From NCBI GenBank assembly GCA_963663765.2, contig CAXXUA010000004.1:864001-928000 (forward strand): a stretch of 64,000 nucleotides of DNA. The letters are read 5' to 3'. This stretch comes from Candidatus Poribacteria bacterium (GTDB lineage: Bacteria; Poribacteria; WGA-4E; WGA-3G). Positions within the stretch are counted from its first letter, which is position 1. Each line of letters starts with the position of its first letter. Below the pieces are notes generated by a model that did no database searches, was not told the DNA's origin, and worked only from the letters and a program-made list of their open reading frames with translations. The translations under genes and the position numbers were made by a program. This document shows, one piece after another, positions 11,646 through 22,361 of this stretch.

Positions 11646-13139
11646 CTAACTCATTACCTGCCAAATTGGTTCCGCACCCTCAACACCAACGAGTTTTTGG
11701 TCTAATCCGCTATGGAAGTAAGTGAGTTGATTCGGGGCAATGCCAAGTTGATGAAGGATTGTAGCGTGCAGATGTCTGACATGGAAAGGGTCTTTGGCAG
11801 CCGCACTACCGAGTTCATCTGTCTCGCCAACACTGATACCACCTTTGATGCCACCACCCGCCATCCACATCGTGAAACCGTATGAGTTGTGGTCACGACC
11901 TGTGCCTTTTGCGTACTCTGCTGTTGGTTGGCGACCAAATTCACCACCCCATACAACAAGTGTTTCGTCAAGTAATCCGCGTTGTTTTAGGTCTTTCAGT
12001 AGACCAGCAATCGGTTTATCAGTTGCTTTGGCATGTTTGTTATGGTTTCTCTCAATGTCGCTATGTGCGTCCCAATTATCATCGTTATGTGCTCCCCCAG
12101 AATAGAGTTGAATGAACCGCACACCACGTTCAACTAATCGCCTTGCCAAAAGGCATTTTCTACCAAATTCCTCTGTCTCTTTCTCATTAATCCCGTACAG
12201 TGTATTGATGTATTCTGGTTCGCTATCCAAATTGACCGCTTCTGGTGCGGCAGATTGCATCTTAAAGGCTAACTCATAGCTTGAAATTCGAGCGGCGAGA
12301 TCGGTGTTGTCAGTCCGTTTAGAGAGATGGGTAGAATTAAATTTGCGCAAATAATCCAGTAGTCTGCGCTGTTCGCTTTCGGACATATCTTTTGCACGTT
12401 CCAAATTCAGTATCGGAGTGCCTTCTGAGCGAAAAACTGTACCTTGATAAACGGCAGGCATATACCCGCTACTCCAATTCTTCGCACCGCTAATTGGACC
12501 ACCCGTCCGGTCAAGCATAACGACATATCCAGGTAAATTCTCGTTCTCACTACCAAGACCATAGTTCACCCAAGAACCGAGTGATGGGTGACCGCTTAGT
12601 ATACGACCTGCGTTCATCATCAGCATCGCTGAACCGTGTAATGGTGAGTCTGCTGTCATTGATTTGATAAAGGCAATGTCATCAACACACGTTGCAATGT
12701 GTGGAAATAGTCCTGACACCCACTGTCCTGACTCACCGTGCTGTTTGAATTCCCATTTAGGACCGACGATGCGACCCTGATTCCTCTCACCACCACGTCC
12801 TTTTGTTTTTACTTGAACGGTTTTGTCGTTGAGTTCCGCCAATTTCGGTTTGTAATCAAAGGTATCAACATGGCTTGGACCGCCATACATGAATAGGAAT
12901 ATTACGCGCTTAGCCTTCGGTGTGAAGTGCGACGGTTTCGGCGCGAGGGGATTTTGATAGGGGGTTACACCGTCTGCTGCAAACGCTTGTGAATTGAGGA
13001 ATCCATCAGTGGATAATAGTCCTGTCAAGGCAAGCGATGCGAAACCTCCAGCGATGTTACCGATAAATTCCCTACGAGTTTGACCACAAAAACTACCTAC
13101 AGAATCTGTTCCTTTCTTAATCTTTGATTGACTATTCAT
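11646..13139 (-). CDS. DUF1501 family (sulfatase-like) protein with Tat signal
   Basis: TRREFI twin-Arg motif, GGPSHVDTFDYKP, GGEFGR, GRDHN. Confidence 0.92.
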   Translation of the reverse strand: MNSQSKIKKGTDSVGSFCGQTRREFIGNIAGGFASLALTGLLSTDGFLNSQAFAADGVTPYQNPLAPKPSHFTPKAKRVIFLFMYGGPSHVDTFDYKPKLAELNDKTVQVKTKGRGGERNQGRIVGPKWEFKQHGESGQWVSGLFPHIATCVDDIAFIKSMTADSPLHGSAMLMMNAGRILSGHPSLGSWVNYGLGSENENLPGYVVMLDRTGGPISGAKNWSSGYMPAVYQGTVFRSEGTPILNLERAKDMSESEQRRLLDYLRKFNSTHLSKRTDNTDLAARISSYELAFKMQSAAPEAVNLDSEPEYINTLYGINEKETEEFGRKCLLARRLVERGVRFIQLYSGGAHNDDNWDAHSDIERNHNKHAKATDKPIAGLLKDLKQRGLLDETLVVWGGEFGRQPTAEYAKGTGRDHNSYGFTMWMAGGGIKGGISVGETDELGSAAAKDPFHVRHLHATILHQLGIAPNQLTYFHSGLDQKLVGVEGAEPIWQVMS

Positions 13140-13189
13140 AACCTCACTCCAATCTTAGGTTTTGTTTTGAAATTCAAAAACAGTTCAAA

Positions 13190-16102
13190 TTAATCTACAA
13201 ATATAAATTCGTTTAAATTCAACGCCAGCAACGCGAATCGAGTAAGCGCGACTTCTGAACTCAGAGCATCTTTTTGTTGAAGTTCCTGTATAAATGTTAA
13301 CGCGTGTTGAATCTCAGTTGCTACCGGTTCACGACAAAGCACAAGTCGTAGTCCAAATTTCACACGCTCTTCGACCGTCTCACCACCTTCCGATTGCATC
13401 TTGTTTGCAAATGCTTGAGCTTGATCATTGATAAATTTCCCATTTAGCATCGTCAGCGATTGGGTCGGCACCGTCGTTGAAAAACGAACTGGACATGTCG
13501 AATCGGTATTCGCTTGGTCGAATTGGTTCAGAATAGGAACAAGCAACGAACGCTTAATTTTTACATAAACACTCCGTCGGTTCGCCTCATCTGGTGGGGA
13601 TTTCCCCCACACACTCCCTGGTCTTGAAGCTGTTGCCAACACTTCTTGTGGTAGTTCAGGAAAAACACTCGGTCCTCCCATTTTAAGGTTCAACTTTCCA
13701 GTATTCCAAAGCACTGTGTCACGAATTTCTTCTGCTGCCAAGCGGCGAATGTTGAATCGCCAGAATAGATCATTGTTCGCATCCTGTTGAATGTAATCCG
13801 AGTGACTCTGAGATGACATACGATATGTGCTTGAGGTCATAATGAGTTTATGTATCGTTTTTAATCGCCAACCAGACGCGATGAATTCAGACGCAAGCCA
13901 ATCGAGAAGTTCTGGATGTGTTGGGGGTGTACCTAACTTGCCAAAATCGTTGGAAGACCGTACAATTCCTCGTCCGAAATGATACTGCCAAATGCGATTA
14001 GCCATCACGCGTGCTGTAAGTGGGTTTTCAGCACGTCCCACCCATTCAGCAAAAACGCGCCGTTTTCCAGACGGTTTGCCATCTTTTGGATTTAACTGTA
14101 TGTTCTCTGCACGTGAATTCAGCACTTCAGGAAATGCAGGTTTTACCTCGCGCCCTACGAGATGCGGATTGCCACGCCGAAGAATATGCGTCGGTGTCTG
14201 TCCATTCTCCGAAACAGCTAAAGCAAGATAGTCGTAAGGTACACGTCGACGTCGAATGTTATCTCGCTGTTTTTTCAGTTCATTGTATTGATCTACCAAC
14301 ACCTTTAGTGGTGGGTTGCCTTTAATTCTTTCTGTATGTGTTTTTATGAGTTCGTCAAAATTGATCGTGGCAGCTGTTGAAAGAGACTGTTTCTCAAGAT
14401 TTGGTCCAGACCACGAGATTTCCAGATGTGGTTTATCTACATCTTTGATGAAATACTCAAGACGAATCGGCACATCACCAACTTCAAGAGTTAGTTGTGT
14501 TTCACTATCACCACTCAATTCACTGACTAATTGACCATTGAGAATTAGTCTAAAGGCACCATTCAGAACAAGGTGGAACGTATAGGTCGCATTTTCCGGT
14601 ACTTGTAATGTCCCTTCAAAGACCAAGCCGAAGTTCTTCTTTCGGTTTGCAGGTGCGAGTGTAAATAAGTTTCTAAATAATTTACCCTCGGCGGTAGGTT
14701 CAAGAGAATCAAAATCGTTAGGAAACTGTTCAAAGGTGTCACGATAGAAACGGTAGGTCAAGTCACGAATTGGAGACACCACGATGTCAGGTGCTATCGG
14801 TTCTGGATGAATCTTAGCGAGTTCTATTTTGATGTTTTCTTGTATTTGAAAGAGATCATCTTGGCATTTTTCTTCTGCTTGTCGTTTTTCAGCCAGTTGT
14901 CTGTCACGTTCAGCTTGCTGTTCAGGTGTACCTATGTCGGCATGCGGTCCACTGTTATGGGGAGTGATGTCATGGAAAAACGCAAGAAAACTGTAATAGT
15001 CATGTGTTGAAATAGGGTCAATTTTATGGTCATGGCATCGCGCACAACCAATTGTCATACCAAGCATCACTTGTCCGGTCGTAGAAACAATATCGTCAAG
15101 ATAGTCGTACCGAGCAAGTTTCCGATCCGCTGGCCCATTGTCCCAAACACCGAGTCTATGATACCCAGTCGCAATGATAGTCTCTGGAGATACGGTATCA
15201 AGTTCATCACCTGCCAATTGTTCCTTGATGAATTCATCATACGGTTTGTCTTGGTTGAACGCGTTAATGACATAGTCTCTGTATCGCCATACATAAGGCT
15301 TGTCAGAATCACTTTCATAACCGTTTGTCTCAGCGTACCGTACAAGATCAAGCCAATGTCGTCCCCATTTTTCACCATACCGAGGTGATTCCAGAAGTTC
15401 GTCAATTAGTTTCTCATAAGCGAATGGTGAAGTGTTATTTAAAAAGGAGTCCACTGCTTCTGGGGAAGGTGGTAATCCTGTGAGATCATAGTATGCCCGA
15501 CGAATAAGCGTCAGTTTGCTTGCGGGAGCGGCGGGGGTATAACAGCGTTCCTCCAGTTTTGCAAGAATAAACGCGTCAATTGGATTCCTCACCCAATCTA
15601 ATGAATACACCGATGGCACTTGAGGTCGTCTTAACGGACGGTATGCCCAATAATCGGATGCAGTTTCAGAAACCGATATGACGTTTCCATCTTGATCGGG
15701 ATATGGAAGTCCCATGTTAATCCACTTTGCTAACACCTCAAGCGAGGCATCATCTAACTTACCATCTGGCGGCATCTCTGCTGTTTCTTGACCGTAACCA
15801 ACCATCTCAAGCAAGAAACTGTCATCAGGTTCTTCTAACGACACCGCGGCTCCGTAATGTCCACCTTCAAGTATCTTTTCCCTATTCGTCAATTCAAGTC
15901 CACCCTGCACTTCGGCTTCACCACCGTGGCATTGGAAACAGTTTTGTTCAAGAATCGGTTTCACTTGAGTGTTAAAGAATTCAGCCTTTTCTTTATCACT
16001 CAGATTATTCGCATGACTGGTACTCAGAAAAATCAACGCACATAAGATAACAATAATACCAAAACAGAAATGATAAGAATGTTGCATAGTTTCTCCATTC
16101 AA
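13190..16102 (-). CDS. Planctomycete cytochrome c + DUF1549 + PA14 + DUF1553 (PSD1) protein
   Basis: CFQCH and CARCH heme motifs, RWLDLVRYAE-like motif, PTHPELLDWLA. Confidence 0.92.
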   Translation of the reverse strand: MNGETMQHSYHFCFGIIVILCALIFLSTSHANNLSDKEKAEFFNTQVKPILEQNCFQCHGGEAEVQGGLELTNREKILEGGHYGAAVSLEEPDDSFLLEMVGYGQETAEMPPDGKLDDASLEVLAKWINMGLPYPDQDGNVISVSETASDYWAYRPLRRPQVPSVYSLDWVRNPIDAFILAKLEERCYTPAAPASKLTLIRRAYYDLTGLPPSPEAVDSFLNNTSPFAYEKLIDELLESPRYGEKWGRHWLDLVRYAETNGYESDSDKPYVWRYRDYVINAFNQDKPYDEFIKEQLAGDELDTVSPETIIATGYHRLGVWDNGPADRKLARYDYLDDIVSTTGQVMLGMTIGCARCHDHKIDPISTHDYYSFLAFFHDITPHNSGPHADIGTPEQQAERDRQLAEKRQAEEKCQDDLFQIQENIKIELAKIHPEPIAPDIVVSPIRDLTYRFYRDTFEQFPNDFDSLEPTAEGKLFRNLFTLAPANRKKNFGLVFEGTLQVPENATYTFHLVLNGAFRLILNGQLVSELSGDSETQLTLEVGDVPIRLEYFIKDVDKPHLEISWSGPNLEKQSLSTAATINFDELIKTHTERIKGNPPLKVLVDQYNELKKQRDNIRRRRVPYDYLALAVSENGQTPTHILRRGNPHLVGREVKPAFPEVLNSRAENIQLNPKDGKPSGKRRVFAEWVGRAENPLTARVMANRIWQYHFGRGIVRSSNDFGKLGTPPTHPELLDWLASEFIASGWRLKTIHKLIMTSSTYRMSSQSHSDYIQQDANNDLFWRFNIRRLAAEEIRDTVLWNTGKLNLKMGGPSVFPELPQEVLATASRPGSVWGKSPPDEANRRSVYVKIKRSLLVPILNQFDQANTDSTCPVRFSTTVPTQSLTMLNGKFINDQAQAFANKMQSEGGETVEERVKFGLRLVLCREPVATEIQHALTFIQELQQKDALSSEVALTRFALLALNLNEFIFVD

Positions 16103-16315: not shown

Positions 16316-17878
16316 TTACAACGAATCTAATGTTTCTTCCGTTTCAGTTTGCAGGACAGAAATTCGCGCAAGAAATGCATTAATGCTTCCCTTCTTGCAA
16401 AACCAATTACCTGTTGCCCCTAACTTAAACCGTTGTCCACGGGCAAACTGGTGGCGAATTTGTCCTGTGTCACCGGGCGGAATATCCCACGCTGAAGCGA
16501 GAGCATCATCTGGATACCCTTCAGTGGGCAGTTCAACATCAGCGTCAAATAGATCAAAAGAACCTTCTGCCTCACCCCCACCCACCTGTATATCAATAAT
16601 GAGCGTGCCACCTTGTTCATAAGACGTAGCGTCAATTTCAGTAGGTGTGTAATCCTGATAACCGTCTCCCGGACCACGAAAAACGTTCAAAACCTCCATT
16701 GATTGTTCACGCAAGTTCAAGTCCAATTTTGACACCAATTTCACTCTATTTTCGCTGGCAACGTTGGTGTTCATAACTTTGCCTTTCGCAACGTTTGCTA
16801 ACTGTGTTAAATATCTTTGTGCCGGATTGCGGCTCGGTAGTTTGTTTTCTGGCTGGTGCAAAATTAACTCTGCTTGGGGATTCAGCACCTGAATATCCAC
16901 TGCACCGACGTAATTTTCTTTGAGTGTTTTAGCAAAAACTCTGACCTTTTCACCCTCTGAATCCTCAATCCATGCTGACAAATCGCGAAAGAGCACACAA
17001 GTATTGACAAAATTCTCGTTCAGCACTTTGATGAGTTCCGAATTTGAGAGCGGACCCGCTCTCAAGTTTTTACCGTTCGCTCAGCAGGATTCATCGTCCA
17101 ACGGTCCCCAACTGATGACCGCATGCATCGGAAGCTGCGTCGCAGTTGCTTTTTCAACTGCCTCCTCAAGCGGTAGCCAATCAATTTCAGCGAACTTGTA
17201 GAACTTCAATTCCAATCTTTTGCGTGTCTCTTCGGATGTGACTGAACCGTCCCAATCAATTTCGTCCGGTGCTTTAGTTGAGGTGGCATGGAGTTTCATA
17301 CGCGGCACGAAAACCATGTCAGCATACCCAAAGTCATTGATATCCACATTGCTATTGCGCGGTGGTAGCGCGAGTGAAAAGTCACAAACGATACCTGTTT
17401 TTAGGTTGATGAGCAAACACCCAGCAAATTGTGATGGAATAAAGCGAGCGACATCCATATCATCATCGTTACGGCGTTTCGATTCCGGTTTGGGACGGGT
17501 CGCCAAAGTAAACTCTGCATGAATTCGGAACGTAATGTCTGCGTAGTCCGGCGAAAGTGCACGTAAACAGGCGAAAGCCCCTTCCTGTCCGTTGCCCAAT
17601 TTCCCTGTAGCACCCGGGTGAAATTGTGAAAGAAACGGAATAACTCTGTCCAGATCAAGCTCCCAAACATCGCCTACCGTCACATTTGACGTTGGAAGAA
17701 AGGCGTTGAAAGCCTCTACTTTATACTCTCTGGTAGGTTCGTTTGGTGCCAGATCAAAGAGTTCCATGTTTTCTGGTGAGTCTTGGTGTAGGTCGTAGGT
17801 TGCATCGGCAATTGGGTCCCAATGTGCATAGATTTGTAAAGTTGCTGTATTTTTCAAGACACTGTTAAGGTCTACCAT
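16316..17878 (-). CDS. Selenoprotein N (SELENON)-like protein, about 520 aa, with selenocysteine at UGA 17083..17081 (codon 266)
   Basis: The two track ORFs are in frame, separated by TGA plus 5 sense codons. Reads WGPLDDESC-U-ANGKNLR versus human SelN [17 protein letters not shown] (from memory); FRIHAEF motif; hairpin downstream. Confidence 0.9.
17044..17065 (-). promoter_or_regulatory. Putative bacterial SECIS element
   Basis: UUGAGAGCG-GGUC-CGCUCUCAA perfect stem starting 15 nt after the UGA; the loop starts with G. Confidence 0.8.
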
Positions 17879-18106
17879 CGATTTTCCCCTTTACGTGATT
17901 CATACTATAACATGAGTTTGATAATAGATATATGAACTTCATTTTGCATAAAATCTTCTTCTCATAAACCCGGTAGGTGCGGTTTCCTAACCGCACCGAG
18001 TCCAAAAATCTGATTTATCATATTCACGTTACTATAGGTTCATGGACTATAAATTATACATGCTACGGACGAATTTTGCCATACCTATCGTATCATAAAT
18101 TTCAGG

Positions 18107-20146
18107 CTACAGGTAAGGTCTCATATCCCAAAGCACGATAGTACCATCAAAACTACCACTTGCCAGTAGTGTGCCATCTGGCGAGAATGCCAATGACTGA
18201 ATATCTGTCGGATGTCCCCAGAGAGTAGTTATGTTCTCTCCACTTGCAACATCCCATAACCTAATTGCCATTTTCTCCATTCCCTTCTGCCACCATGTGC
18301 CTGATGTAAGATAACGTCCACACGGTGAAAATGTCAGAGCATAAGGCTTTTCTGTTTGAAACTGCGGTATTGCAAATAGCGTTGTCAAACTTTCGGCACA
18401 CCACAAACGCAATTCACCGTACATTCCACCAGCAATCACTTTCCCACACGGCGAAAATGCTATCTTCATAAGTATACCACGTTCCTTCAAAGACAATGTG
18501 GTAATCTCTTTGCTTGTCTCTACGTCCCACAGTCGAGCAGTTCTATCACTTGAACCACTTACGAGTCTTTTACCATCTGGTGAATATTTCACTGACCAAA
18601 TAAAATCTGTATGTCCAGTAAATGGCTTTAACTTTTCCTTATTTTTGAAATCCCATTGATAGATTGTACCTTCTCTACTTCCAACTGCAAGTTGATCGCT
18701 TGTCGGTGAAAATGCTATTTTCCATGTCAATTGTGCCTGTTCGGTAAATTCAGCGATCGGTTCGTCAGGTTTCCCAGCATCCCACACACAGCCATAGTCG
18801 TCGTTGGATCGGATATATGCACCGATGATGTTTCCGCAAGGTAAAACGGAAAAAGAAGTTATCCTCGTGTTCTCCAGTATTGTATCCTGCACCTGTTTAC
18901 TCTCAACATCCCATAGTGCAATTCCCCTATGATCACTCGTGCTTGCAAGTGTCTTTCCATCCGGTAAAAACAGTACAGGTTGCGGAACATGATTAAATCT
19001 ACGAAGTGTTGTGGTTAAGTGTGTGTGGTACCCCACCTCTGACTCTTTGCTCAGTGTAAAGTCTGTAAGAGCCAGCTGTGGGAACTCTCTAAACCACATC
19101 GCATCAATACTACGGGGATGAATTGCTGGAATGCAAAGTTTTTCTCTACGTTCAACATTCCAGACATCAACAGTATCTTCTCCATTCACAATCGCGAACA
19201 ACTCACCTTCTTCGGAATAGAATGGAACTATCCGAGTCGATCCAAAATCAGTATAAACCTCCTTTTGCTTACCCTTTGCTATGTCCCAGACGCGTAAGCT
19301 TTTATCTCTACTACTCGATGTGATGAATTTTTTACAAGGTGAGAAGGTGATATAATCTACCCAGTCCTTATGACCAATGAAATGTGCAATGCGTTCACCT
19401 GATACTATATCCCAGACTGAGACACATTGTGCAACCCAACCGGTATCGCTGGTGGATTCGTCAGGGGTCGCTGCTGCCAGTAGGTGGTTATCTTGCGAAA
19501 AGATTCTATTTACTCCTGCGAACTTGAATATTAATTCACCAGTCTCAGGACACCAGATGTAAGTTTGCGTACCTTCTGTGCCAAGGTTATCTGCAGTTGC
19601 AGCAACGTATTGTCCATTTGGAGAAAATTCCAAATCGTAAATATCCGCTGAAGTAACTTCACGTTCTCCTCGGTCCATCTGTGCGATGCAAACATCTTCA
19701 TGGACATCCAAAACCTCAACGATTCCTTTCTGATTTGCCGTGACAATCCACTTACTATCAGGGGAAAATGAAACATGCCAATAGATATTTTGTTCTTGCA
19801 TTCGTTTCATCTGTCCTAAACATTCTCCACTCTGAGCATCCAGCAATTTGACTATACCGTCATAATTGGCAACAGCAATCCACTCTCCATTTGGTGAAAA
19901 ATCCAGAGTGGAAATCATCCCTCGTTCTGTTTCCCACAATGCGATAGGTAACTTTGACGACATTTCATACCACCAAAGTCCCACAAGTGTACCGACAGCA
20001 AAGTACTTACTTTTAGGGGAAAGTGCTATTTTATGACTTCTTCCTTTCCCCAACCGAGCGATTGCGTTTTCTGGCAGTACCCATGTCGTTCCTTCAGTGT
20101 CCCTCAGCACAACATTGAATGGTGCCGGTCTTCTATTTTGTTTCAT
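18107..20146 (-). CDS. WD40-repeat protein
   Basis: Many GH...AFSP...WD repeats; N-terminal LPENAIARLGKG motif. Confidence 0.92.
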   Translation of the reverse strand: MKQNRRPAPFNVVLRDTEGTTWVLPENAIARLGKGRSHKIALSPKSKYFAVGTLVGLWWYEMSSKLPIALWETERGMISTLDFSPNGEWIAVANYDGIVKLLDAQSGECLGQMKRMQEQNIYWHVSFSPDSKWIVTANQKGIVEVLDVHEDVCIAQMDRGEREVTSADIYDLEFSPNGQYVAATADNLGTEGTQTYIWCPETGELIFKFAGVNRIFSQDNHLLAAATPDESTSDTGWVAQCVSVWDIVSGERIAHFIGHKDWVDYITFSPCKKFITSSSRDKSLRVWDIAKGKQKEVYTDFGSTRIVPFYSEEGELFAIVNGEDTVDVWNVERREKLCIPAIHPRSIDAMWFREFPQLALTDFTLSKESEVGYHTHLTTTLRRFNHVPQPVLFLPDGKTLASTSDHRGIALWDVESKQVQDTILENTRITSFSVLPCGNIIGAYIRSNDDYGCVWDAGKPDEPIAEFTEQAQLTWKIAFSPTSDQLAVGSREGTIYQWDFKNKEKLKPFTGHTDFIWSVKYSPDGKRLVSGSSDRTARLWDVETSKEITTLSLKERGILMKIAFSPCGKVIAGGMYGELRLWCAESLTTLFAIPQFQTEKPYALTFSPCGRYLTSGTWWQKGMEKMAIRLWDVASGENITTLWGHPTDIQSLAFSPDGTLLASGSFDGTIVLWDMRPYL

Positions 20147-20348: not shown

Positions 20349-22361
20349 CTAACTTTGGATATAAGGTTTCATATCCCAAAGCAGAATGGTACCATCATAC
20401 CCGCCACTTGCCAATACGGAACCATCAGGTGAAAATGCCAGACATTGGATATCTGACGGATGTCCTCGGAAATCTGTGATTTTTTCACCGGTCTTAACAT
20501 CCCACAACAACACCGGACACTTCTTAATACCGAAGTCACGTATCCACCACGCACCAGAAGCCAAATAGCACCCACACGGTGAAAAGGCTAACGCATAAGG
20601 ATATACACTATCTTGTGGTAGCGGTAGTGTCAAAACGATCTCACAATGGACGGTGTCCCATAACAGAAGTTCTCGAATTCTTCCACAAGCTATCAGACGA
20701 CTGCAATCAGAAAAGGCAATTGCACGAATTTATTTTGGGAACGCTTCAATAGACTCACCACTTTCAACATCCCACATTCGGGATTTAGGTCCAGTGCTGC
20801 TAATGCTTACCAGCAGTTTTTCATTTGGACTAAAAGCAAGTGAATACGTCCCTTCAGCATGCGCTTTGAACGCATGCTGTATGTGCTGTTTCTGCACATC
20901 CCACACATACAGCATGCCATCACTATCCGTGCATGCCAGTTTGTTGCTTTTGTGTGCGAATACTGCCGTTGATACTTGCCGTTCTTGTTCGGTAAGTCGT
21001 CTTTTTTCGTTAGGAAGGGTAAAAGTTGCAACTGGAGTCTCTGCATTTCCAATATCCCAGACCTTTGCAATTGAACCGTCACGACCAGCTGCATAGATTT
21101 TTCCCTGTGACGACACAGAGACATTAAATTTTCTTCCAGGTAGATTGAAACTGGATGGTGGTAAGAAAGGTAGGGTAATATCCCATAACCTTACCTTCCC
21201 GTTTTCGCTCCTATACCCGCCTACAAGCGTTTTTCCATCTGGGGTAAAAACCAGCGAAAAAGGAACGCCAGTATGTAAATGTGGAGACAAATGTGGTTCG
21301 GAATTTCCCATCGTCCATTTCCGAAATTCACGGGGATTCTTGGAAGCTAAAACATAAGAAGTGCCCTTTGGAACGTGTGCACCCTGGAGAGAATTATGTT
21401 CTTCAAGGAAGAGGTTACCCTTTTCACCATGCGCTATGTCCCACACTATTAAGGCATCATCAGACATCTCTAAAGCATACAGCATGCCCTCTGGTGAATA
21501 AAAGACCTTCTTCCATTCCGTGCCAAGATTTTGAAATGTATGGAGCAACTCCCAATTTATGACTGACCAAACTCGAATTGCGCCATCTCGTCCACCAGAT
21601 GCAAGGAACTGTCCACAGGGTGAAAAGACAACACTATAAACAAAATCAGGATGTTCTGTAAGACAAGTGAGTTGCTCACCTGTTTTTATATTCCATATAA
21701 CGATATAGTTGGAAGTGTGTTCGGTTTTAGGGATTCTTGGGATTCTCCAACCGCGATCTGCATGTGTGAATAAACGTTCATCAGACATTGTACAAGCGAT
21801 TAAACTGCTATCCGGAGAGAAGGCAATAGGACGTCGTAGAATAGGTTCCCAGATATAATTGGTATTGTCGTGAAATTTTGCAATCAGCTCCCATGTTTCA
21901 GTATTCCAGACATATAAGATGTAGTCACGCTTATTGGAAACAGCGAGAAGCTGACTATCAGGCGAGAAGACGATGTGGGAGACATAATCGTAAGATCTCT
22001 CCGCTTCATCTCGTTCCATTTGAGAAATGCAAACACCTCTCTGCCAATCCCATACCTTGACGAGGCCGTCTCCATCGGCTGTAGCAAGCCACTTGCCGTT
22101 TGGTGAAAAGGAGACAGCATCAATATATCCCCTATCAGTTTCCCAGAGATCAATAGGAACCATAGTGGATAAATCATACCACCATATCCCTATAGAACTC
22201 CCGCATGCAAAGTGTTTTCCATCAGGAGAATATGATGTGGTATCAGGTATTATTAACCCTTGCCCGAATCGTGCAATAGCGCCATCAGGAAGTTCCCAGG
22301 TGGTTATATCATTGTTTTTAATTTGCCCTAAAGCAGACGACCAGACTGCACTCTTTTGCAT
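20349..22361 (-). pseudogene. WD40-repeat protein interrupted by one in-frame TAA (20732..20730)
   Basis: The frame continues after the stop as IRAIAFSDCSRLIACG...LLLWD into ORF 20349..20633; paralog of 18107..20146. Confidence 0.85.

Follow-up and report, generated by a model that had tools for sequence, protein, structure and literature searches.

The stretch of DNA analysed here (the window) comprises 64,000 nucleotides from a Candidatus Poribacteria bacterium, and the gene under study lies on its minus strand at 16316–17878. Two open reading frames (ORFs), 17081–17878 (265 residues, ending ...WGPLDDESC) and 16316–17065 (249 residues), share a frame there, and their sole separator is a TGA at 17081–17083. 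The junction codons, GAT GAA TCC TGC TGA GCG AAC GGT AAA AAC TTG AGA, agree exactly with those given in a preliminary description of the locus, which had proposed a hidden homologue of animal Selenoprotein N (SELENON, also named SEPN1). When the TGA is read as selenocysteine (Sec, U), the junction becomes DDESC-U-ANGKNLR and the product has 520 residues, with U266 as the one in-frame stop. The complete read-through coding sequence of this predicted SelN-like selenoprotein starts with the ATG at 17876–17878, has its stop codon at the low end, and finds full-length homology in 79 Poribacteria loci. The TGC at 17084–17086 encodes Cys265, the putative partner of Sec in a C-U redox pair, and this residue is Cys in 70/70 filled rows of a cross-kingdom alignment.

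The TGA is not an assembly error, the possibility against which the preliminary description had advised a check. Contigs X1 and X2, from two public runs of two studies, cover 17046–17950 with 0 differences, and the TGA is kept in homologues; one of these runs is possibly the source sample. Contigs X6 and X7 carry many strain differences over the region, none of them at 17081–17083 among the differences listed, and only X1 and X2 were counted as showing the TGA. Contigs from public runs also break or branch exactly at the stretch containing the Sec motif and the hairpin described below (17046–17095), and short pieces of other contigs match only those 50 bases. Conservation of this stretch among paralogues and strains is high enough for it to behave as a repeat in assembly graphs.

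The protein encoded across the TGA (P0001) resembles Selenoprotein N on both sides of the Sec column. BLASTP against Callithrix jacchus Selenoprotein N (P0324) gave 29% identity over 352 columns (E 2e-40), aligning query residues 48–341 with subject residues 164–504 and crossing the Cys-Sec pair. All of the SELENON motifs listed in the preliminary description recur in this alignment (GAVACLTA/GAFACLRA, FRIHAEFQL/FRIHAEFTL, SPAQFTG/IPSQFAG, NVD and IPQMEL/VPRMKL), and the similarity continues past the UGA (LLNESFISTW/VLNENFVNTC), as had been claimed. The homologous core (residues 48–341; 16856–17737, minus strand), which contains FRIHAEF, with R118 and H120, and DDESCU, is also recovered by profile matches. 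For these we built a profile, A2, from six natural full-length bacterial homologues that have Gly or Trp at the Sec column and are hence read through by gene callers. In a library of 1.84 billion proteins, A2 matched 746 representatives of clusters formed at 50% identity at E ≤ 1e-3, and 521 at E ≤ 1e-10. The matches listed at E 1e-25 to 1e-28 include animal proteins from Nucella, Potamilus, Nematostella and Pycnogonum (named SEPN1), and the Potamilus match has relatives across the animals, Homo sapiens among them, that go under the names Selenoprotein N, SELENON or SEPN1. In an alignment of 72 rows, bacterial and animal, and with residue numbers adjusted for an insertion in the window protein, at least 90% conservation was seen at L83, H87, G100, A107, R118 (72/72), H120 (71/72), P148, F151, G153, F167, P172, N177, G258, L260, D262 and C265 (70/70). 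Because of the E value of 2e-40 and the retention of the TGA in 101/104 copies (see below), the similarity to SELENON can be taken as far beyond chance.

This similarity is confined to the core. The N-terminal 163 residues of the animal protein, with its transmembrane (TM) anchor and EF-hand, have no counterpart in the window protein, in which no EF-hand was found (Pfam, E ≤ 1); four animal SELENON proteins gave weak EF-hand matches. The proposal of a selenoprotein gene of about 520 codons without the TM/EF-hand N-terminus is borne out by an alignment that starts at SELENON residue 164. Past the core, the window protein continues for about 180 further residues, which include an extra C-terminal domain of about 125 residues (385–508; 16355–16726, minus strand). 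This domain has no SELENON counterpart and is found again in other Poribacteria proteins, in some of them twice. No signal peptide or hydrophobic N-terminus was detected in the window protein by a crude hydrophobic-run test; by the same test, a signal- or lipoprotein-like N-terminus is present in 32/99 Poribacteria copies and in 0 members of the window's subfamily (motif U-ANGK), so the window protein is probably cytoplasmic. By its predicted sequence, the protein is thus a SELENON catalytic core without TM anchor or EF-hand, joined to a bacterial C-terminal domain, and is to be seen as a member of the core family and not as an orthologue of the animal calcium sensor. Searches with P0001 found no match in Pfam or NCBIfam (E ≤ 1) or among PDB sequences, and the C-terminal domain likewise matched nothing in Pfam or NCBIfam; a PDB profile search with A2 returned only chance LpxC matches (E ~1).

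The Sec column is strongly conserved among Poribacteria. A scan of one genome per prokaryotic species found 290 stretches encoding a relative, of which the best 80 were kept; these correspond to 79 loci, nearly all titled Poribacteria metagenome-assembled genomes. The 104 homologous copies in these loci, whose identity to the window protein ranges from 90% down to ~31%, have TGA at the Sec column in 101 cases, and TGG, TGT and GGC once each. The search for homologues with TGA or Cys at this column, suggested in the preliminary description, thus found both, as Cys occupies it in five database homologues. In a scan of the phylum, 131/176 genomes contained matches (103/133 among high-quality genomes). 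A single genome had as many as 15, and 143/150 of the matches listed have an in-frame TGA. By family, the matches were spread over 109/111 genomes of f1, 10/11 of f2, 11/29 of f3 and 0/24 of eight other families. The window's own genome has this SelN-like copy only, plus one fragment of the C-terminal domain at a contig end. Many paralogues read S-C-U-G at the motif, while the window protein reads S-C-U-A.

The same column marks where database proteins break. Among 269 database relatives, 76 N-terminal halves end exactly at the Sec column, as expected from the earlier remark that gene callers split the gene, and only 2 end elsewhere; 38 are C-terminal halves, 15 span the column and 138 cover neither side. 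The 15 spanning proteins have Cys (5), Gly (5), Trp (3, one of them a faulty Nematostella gene model), Lys (1) or Ala (1). The bacterial family to which the gene belongs is large. It occurs in Poribacteria, where a genome often has many copies and many members are predicted to be exported, and in bacteria of Planctomycetota type.

Several observations on individual family members may be recorded here. Trp (TGG), Gly (GGC) or Cys (TGT) naturally stands in place of Sec at L064:3805, L083:7283 and L072:3808, and in proteins P0004, P0006–P0009 and P0012; the Gly-form copy still has the hairpin, and the copy with TGT diverges and stops 13 codons further on. As many as four SelN-like genes, every one having its own TGA, can also stand in tandem (L090:1–6546; also L061, L063, L075 and L044), and database protein P0003 fuses the C-terminal half of one tandem copy to the N-terminal half of the next. 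The C-terminal domain of 125 residues occurs twice in 298-residue Poribacteria proteins (P0013); one such twice-domain protein, P0062, carries the NCBI name ‘BrnA antitoxin family protein’, which is probably a misnomer. In P0137 and P0220, an N-terminus like that of extracytoplasmic function (ECF) sigma factors is followed by a hydrophobic stretch and then the SelN domain, an architecture that looks like a fused sigma/anti-sigma sensor. The sigma regions of P0137, which is a Cys (SCCG) form, match Sigma70_r2 (E 8.8e-13) and Sigma70_r4_2 (E 2.2e-10), and a separate match, P0058 (588 residues), has precomputed sigma-70 Pfam domains.

In bacteria, a selenocysteine insertion sequence (SECIS) is a stem-loop that closely follows the UGA and has a small apical loop containing G/U. 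At the window locus, a SECIS-like hairpin, UUGAGAGCG-GGUC-CGCUCUCAA, occupies 17044–17065 (minus strand); its 9-bp stem starts 15 nt past the UGA and its GGUC loop (17053–17056) lies 24 nt after it. When 60-nt stretches starting at the Sec codon were folded (95 distinct sequences), a hairpin appeared in the same place, with loop G28 invariant. As a control, the codons of the 30-nt region were resampled synonymously from the genes' own usage. The native sequences had a mean energy of −10.5 kcal/mol vs. −4.6 kcal/mol for the resampled ones (mean z −2.6), and in 67/95 copies no more than 5% of resamples were equally stable. Codon choice in the stem is skewed in the same region: the Arg codon is AGR in 95/95 copies vs. 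29% of Arg codons in these genes, and the Leu codon is CTC in 91/95 copies vs. 19% of Leu codons overall. At pair 27–32, 54 copies have G-C and 33 have A-U, and pair 21–38 changes from G-C to C-G in four copies, with both amino acids changed. The hairpin is therefore under RNA-level selection beyond that on the peptide.

Both the codon and the hairpin extend to bacteria of Planctomycetota type, whose DNA comes from GC-rich, soil-type metagenome contigs (GC 0.52–0.66). These relatives form a DDQSC-motif clade that includes proteins titled Planctomycetaceae, Gemmataceae and Planctomycetales bacterium, with N-terminal halves annotated ‘hypothetical protein’. All 11 of the 11 aligned proteins end in ...DDQSC and have a hydrophobic anchor at the N-terminus. 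TGA is the next codon in 12/12 loci that reach the column, and the frame stays open for 113–179 more codons (U-PSGTDLRAGLLS...). A hairpin in the same place reads GAGAGCA-GGUC-UGCUCUC, with further compensatory changes in locus L103. Because the same TGA and hairpin recur in these loci, the Sec codon and SECIS are ancestral to the family across at least two bacterial phylum-level groups. The Planctomycetota-type proteins have the family, the TGA, and the hairpin place and loop in common with the window protein. They differ in their N-terminal hydrophobic anchor and their motif, DDQSCU-PSGTDLR, and, unlike the window protein, have only 113–179 residues past Sec, an animal-like length, without the C-terminal domain of 125 residues. 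They also stand nearer to animals in the tree than the window's clade does.

The machinery needed to decode UGA as Sec is present in the genome, where the preliminary description had asked for selA, selB, selC and selD to be sought; all four were found. The selA match scores 545 bits, and selA lies ~12 kb from selB and tRNA-SeC on the same contig. The tRNA-SeC (anticodon tca) is 54 nt downstream of the selB match (G000:C4:286101–286381; loci L002 and L010). The selD gene (G000:C2:220603–221529, minus strand; locus L011) has one in-frame TGA, with the motif ...VKCAG-U-ASKLAPGE, so that SelD itself would be a selenoprotein here. Folding the sequence after the UGA of selD in search of the same loop gave no clear common hairpin. 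Elsewhere in the window TGA acts as a stop: it closes 4/32 stop-to-stop frames of at least 250 codons, this gene's N-terminal half included, and selA and selB are open under translation table 11. The genetic code is thus the standard one.

Together these observations make it very probable that one gene at 16316–17878 (minus strand) encodes a SELENON-family selenoprotein of 520 residues, with the UGA at 17081–17083 decoded as Sec. Several points weigh against this. Translation through the UGA and incorporation of selenium are predictions. The window motif is SCU-A, not SCU-G, and Sec is naturally replaced by Gly and Trp in some relatives, so that some family members may work without a redox-active residue at this site. 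Most of the covariation in the stem reflects one clade split, with few independent events, and the stem overlaps a conserved peptide, LRAGPLS, that is kept in animals too (LRETVLES), so the nucleotide conservation is partly protein-driven. An Rfam scan of 16900–17200 found no match; the hairpin's role therefore rests on its position, loop motif and codon bias, and SelB binding is predicted. Finally, the sole hint of a thioredoxin-like fold is a sub-threshold Thioredoxin_7 match in the Cys homologue P0191 (E 0.044; 14.3 bits vs. a cut-off of 27).

If the TGA were instead a true stop, separating two genes or marking a decaying pseudogene, one would expect what table-11 calls indeed give, namely two ORFs, with a TTG start 15 nt past the stop, and what public databases indeed hold, namely the halves as separate proteins. 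Yet the frame and the TGA are kept in nearly all of the deeply diverged Poribacteria copies and in another phylum, and a pseudogene would gather other stops and frameshifts. Proteins with Cys, Gly or Trp at the column, like those of animals, cross it as one chain, the downstream hairpin is under selection and the genome has Sec machinery; a genuine stop is barely credible. If the UGA were decoded as an ordinary amino acid such as Trp or Cys, through near-cognate reading or a reassigned code, this would suit the TGG in one relative and the W or G at the column in some database proteins, and the predicted status of selenium incorporation also speaks for it. But other long frames end at TGA, and selA and selB are open under table 11, so that the code is standard; the column is that of Sec in SELENON, and the GGUC-loop hairpin and complete selA/B/C/D set fit SelB-dependent decoding, so we hold this to be highly improbable.

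If the UGA is indeed decoded as Sec, SelB would recognise the hairpin, 15–37 nt downstream with its GGUC loop, and bring in Sec-tRNA(Sec) (anticodon UCA) to place Sec at U266, adjoining Cys265. The protein, which has no signal peptide, would be a cytoplasmic thiol/selenol oxidoreductase. Because of the homology with SELENON, Cys265-Sec266 is inferred to be its redox centre, and the pair could cycle between a selenolate/thiol and a selenenylsulfide, as has been proposed for the SCUG motif of SELENON and the GCUG motif of thioredoxin reductase. Its targets, which it would reduce, might be oxidised (sulfenylated or disulfide-bonded) thiols, or peroxides. A role in the active site or in structure is likely for the invariant R118 and H120, within FRIHAEF, and for D262.

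This picture draws on SELENON itself, an endoplasmic reticulum (ER)-membrane redox protein that is mutated in SELENON-related myopathy and that, in the portions available to us of two reviews, is described as a reductase acting through SCUG and likened to thioredoxin reductase with its GCUG (PMC12839072, PMC8148124). Animal SELENON and the window protein have in common a homologous core of ~300 residues, a Cys-Sec pair in the same column within DD(E/Q)SCU, and the motifs FRIHAEF, G.ACL.A, P.QF.G, NVD and LNE.F.NT. The basic residue four positions after Sec, K270, aligns with human SELENON R466, which is mutated in patients as p.Arg466Gln according to the part seen of a 2026 review (PMC12839072). 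Unlike animal SELENON, the window protein has no TM anchor, EF-hand or signal peptide and is presumably cytoplasmic instead of ER-lumenal, reads SCU-A instead of SCU-G, and carries the extra C-terminal domain. Its SECIS would be an in-frame bacterial hairpin, whereas that of animals is a eukaryotic element in the 3′ untranslated region, and the SERCA2/ERO1 context of animal SELENON has no bacterial counterpart. The C-terminal GCUG of thioredoxin reductase (as described in the consulted part of PMC12839072), with its adjacent, selenenylsulfide-capable Cys and Sec, offers a chemical model for the window's C-U. Compared by description, the two have no sequence homology, no flavin domain was detected in the window protein, and its C-U is internal, not C-terminal. 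Known bacterial thioredoxin-fold selenoproteins (from NCBIfam and the available portion of PMC13188914) resemble the window gene in SelB-dependent UGA decoding with an in-frame hairpin, in having Sec next to or near Cys, and in the alternation of Sec and Cys among homologues; none of their NCBIfam models matches the window protein at E ≤ 1.

How did a gene of this kind come to be present in both bacteria and animals? The preliminary description regarded SelN as an ER protein of animals and suggested exchange between a sponge host and its symbiont. The restriction to animals is too narrow, since SELENON occurs in a few algae as well, according to the portion available of a paper on algal selenoproteomes (PMC7539508). 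We computed a careful maximum-likelihood (ML) tree from 72 rows and 268 columns (LG+G4, Sec column removed; unrooted, no outgroup), which contains no sponge or algal SELENON and from which the poorly aligned animal_P0293 (Owenia) was left out, as from all 72-row trees. For an earlier 107-row tree, redundancy had been reduced by removing rows that exceeded 70% identity to one retained. FastTree and quick IQ-TREE trees were superseded, as a constrained search gave a better likelihood than the quick tree. The careful tree unites all 12 animal rows in a single clade (100/99). A branch with support of 98/93 groups the animals with 13 Planctomycetota-type and seven other rows, apart from all 18 Poribacteria rows; the latter fall in two clades, both inside the 40-row group across that branch. 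When the animals were constrained to join the window's clade, the log-likelihood was 14.26 lower, and the approximately unbiased (AU) test did not reject this (p 0.263); on the quick tree, joining animals with all Poribacteria gave p 0.06. Over the core columns, identity to the nearest Poribacteria copy is 33–42% for animal rows vs. 36–45% for Planctomycetota-type rows.

These results do not support the idea that the gene, or the whole Poribacteria family, was recently acquired from sponge SELENON or donated to sponges. In its favour, Poribacteria are sponge symbionts, to judge from the record titles of relatives and from one run labelled as a sponge metagenome, SelN occurs in sponges (in the part available of PMC3473315), and the AU test retains the grouping of animals with the window's clade, on a tree that lacks a sponge sequence. 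Against it, the animals sit across the 98/93 branch from the Poribacteria, together with Planctomycetota-type and other rows, and are about as distant from them as the Planctomycetota-type rows are. The bacterial family is diverse (746 clusters at 50% identity), its genes have an in-frame bacterial SECIS, the same TGA and hairpin are found in soil-type Planctomycetota-type contigs, and SELENON occurs in some algae too. We consider such an exchange unlikely.

A Shine-Dalgarno-like AAGGGGA (17885–17891, minus strand), read from the sequence, places GGGG 7 nt before the ATG and may be the ribosome-binding site. A promoter-like ATGGCA-18-TATAAT (10/12; 18053–18082, minus strand), ~175 nt upstream of the ATG, is only a weak consensus match, and six such sites were found in the region vs. 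4.4 expected. Downstream, at 11646–16102 (minus strand), lie a PSCyt1/DUF1549/PA14/DUF1553 gene and then a DUF1501 gene. The first of these is syntenic with the SelN-like gene in 19 related loci (73–89% identity), which may reflect mere relatedness. Upstream are genes for two large WD40 beta-propeller proteins (18107–20146 and 20730–22361, both minus strand), the first of which is syntenic in four close relatives. No redox partner was found among these neighbours (WD40, PSCyt/DUF1549/DUF1553, DUF1501, ABC).

We found no description of a bacterial SelN in the full-text papers that could be searched; supplements (for example S9 Table of PMC4807772, on selenoprotein candidates in two Planctomycetes, or those of selenoproteome surveys) may list the family. 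An earlier mention of a Poribacteria SelN, raised in the preliminary description, could not be traced; Chernorudskiy 2020 (PMC7474598) does not contain ‘bacterial’, ‘poribacteria’ or ‘candidatus’. The SELENON reviews PMC12839072 and PMC8148124 have no word that starts with ‘bacteri’ or ‘prokaryot’. In the portion available of a 2026 review of prokaryotic selenoproteins (PMC13188914), matches to ‘selenoprotein N’ or ‘SELENON’ were unrelated words only, and the families that it names as shared with eukaryotes are SelD, GPX, deiodinase-like, SELENOW-like and MsrA, with SelN not among them. What appears to be new, with an earlier mention possible, is thus a SELENON-family core in bacteria, predicted to be made via a bacterial SECIS, lacking the calcium-sensing module and differing at the C-terminus.

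A bacterial SelN reopens the question of the origin of an ‘animal’ selenoprotein. As a tentative joint reading, which we regard as possible but rather doubtful, SELENON might be a bacterial invention at root: the core would have been supplied by the Poribacteria/Planctomycetota-type family, and the TM anchor and EF-hand added later by eukaryotes. The peptide after Sec in animals (LR...L-E/S) would then be a leftover of SECIS-forming codons, and the expansion of paralogues, many of them exported, would go far to explain the retention of SelA and SelB in sponge symbionts, in contrast to their free-living relatives. The part seen of a 2017 study (PMC5649159) reports that SelA and SelB co-occur in most sponge-symbiont bins and are missing in most close relatives, and there leaves this unexplained and the selenoproteins unnamed; the SelN-like expansion is a candidate explanation for that enrichment.

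For SELENON, a human disease gene, chemistry and structure are still unsettled, and no PDB chain matches the family. Soluble, anchor-free bacterial homologues, together with the natural Cys forms, offer a practical route to the structure and enzymology of the core, including the residue equivalent to that changed in R466Q. The family is large and systematically mis-annotated, with its halves filed as ‘hypothetical protein’, and neither Pfam nor NCBIfam contains it. Once it is recognised, the counted selenoproteome of Poribacteria would grow substantially.

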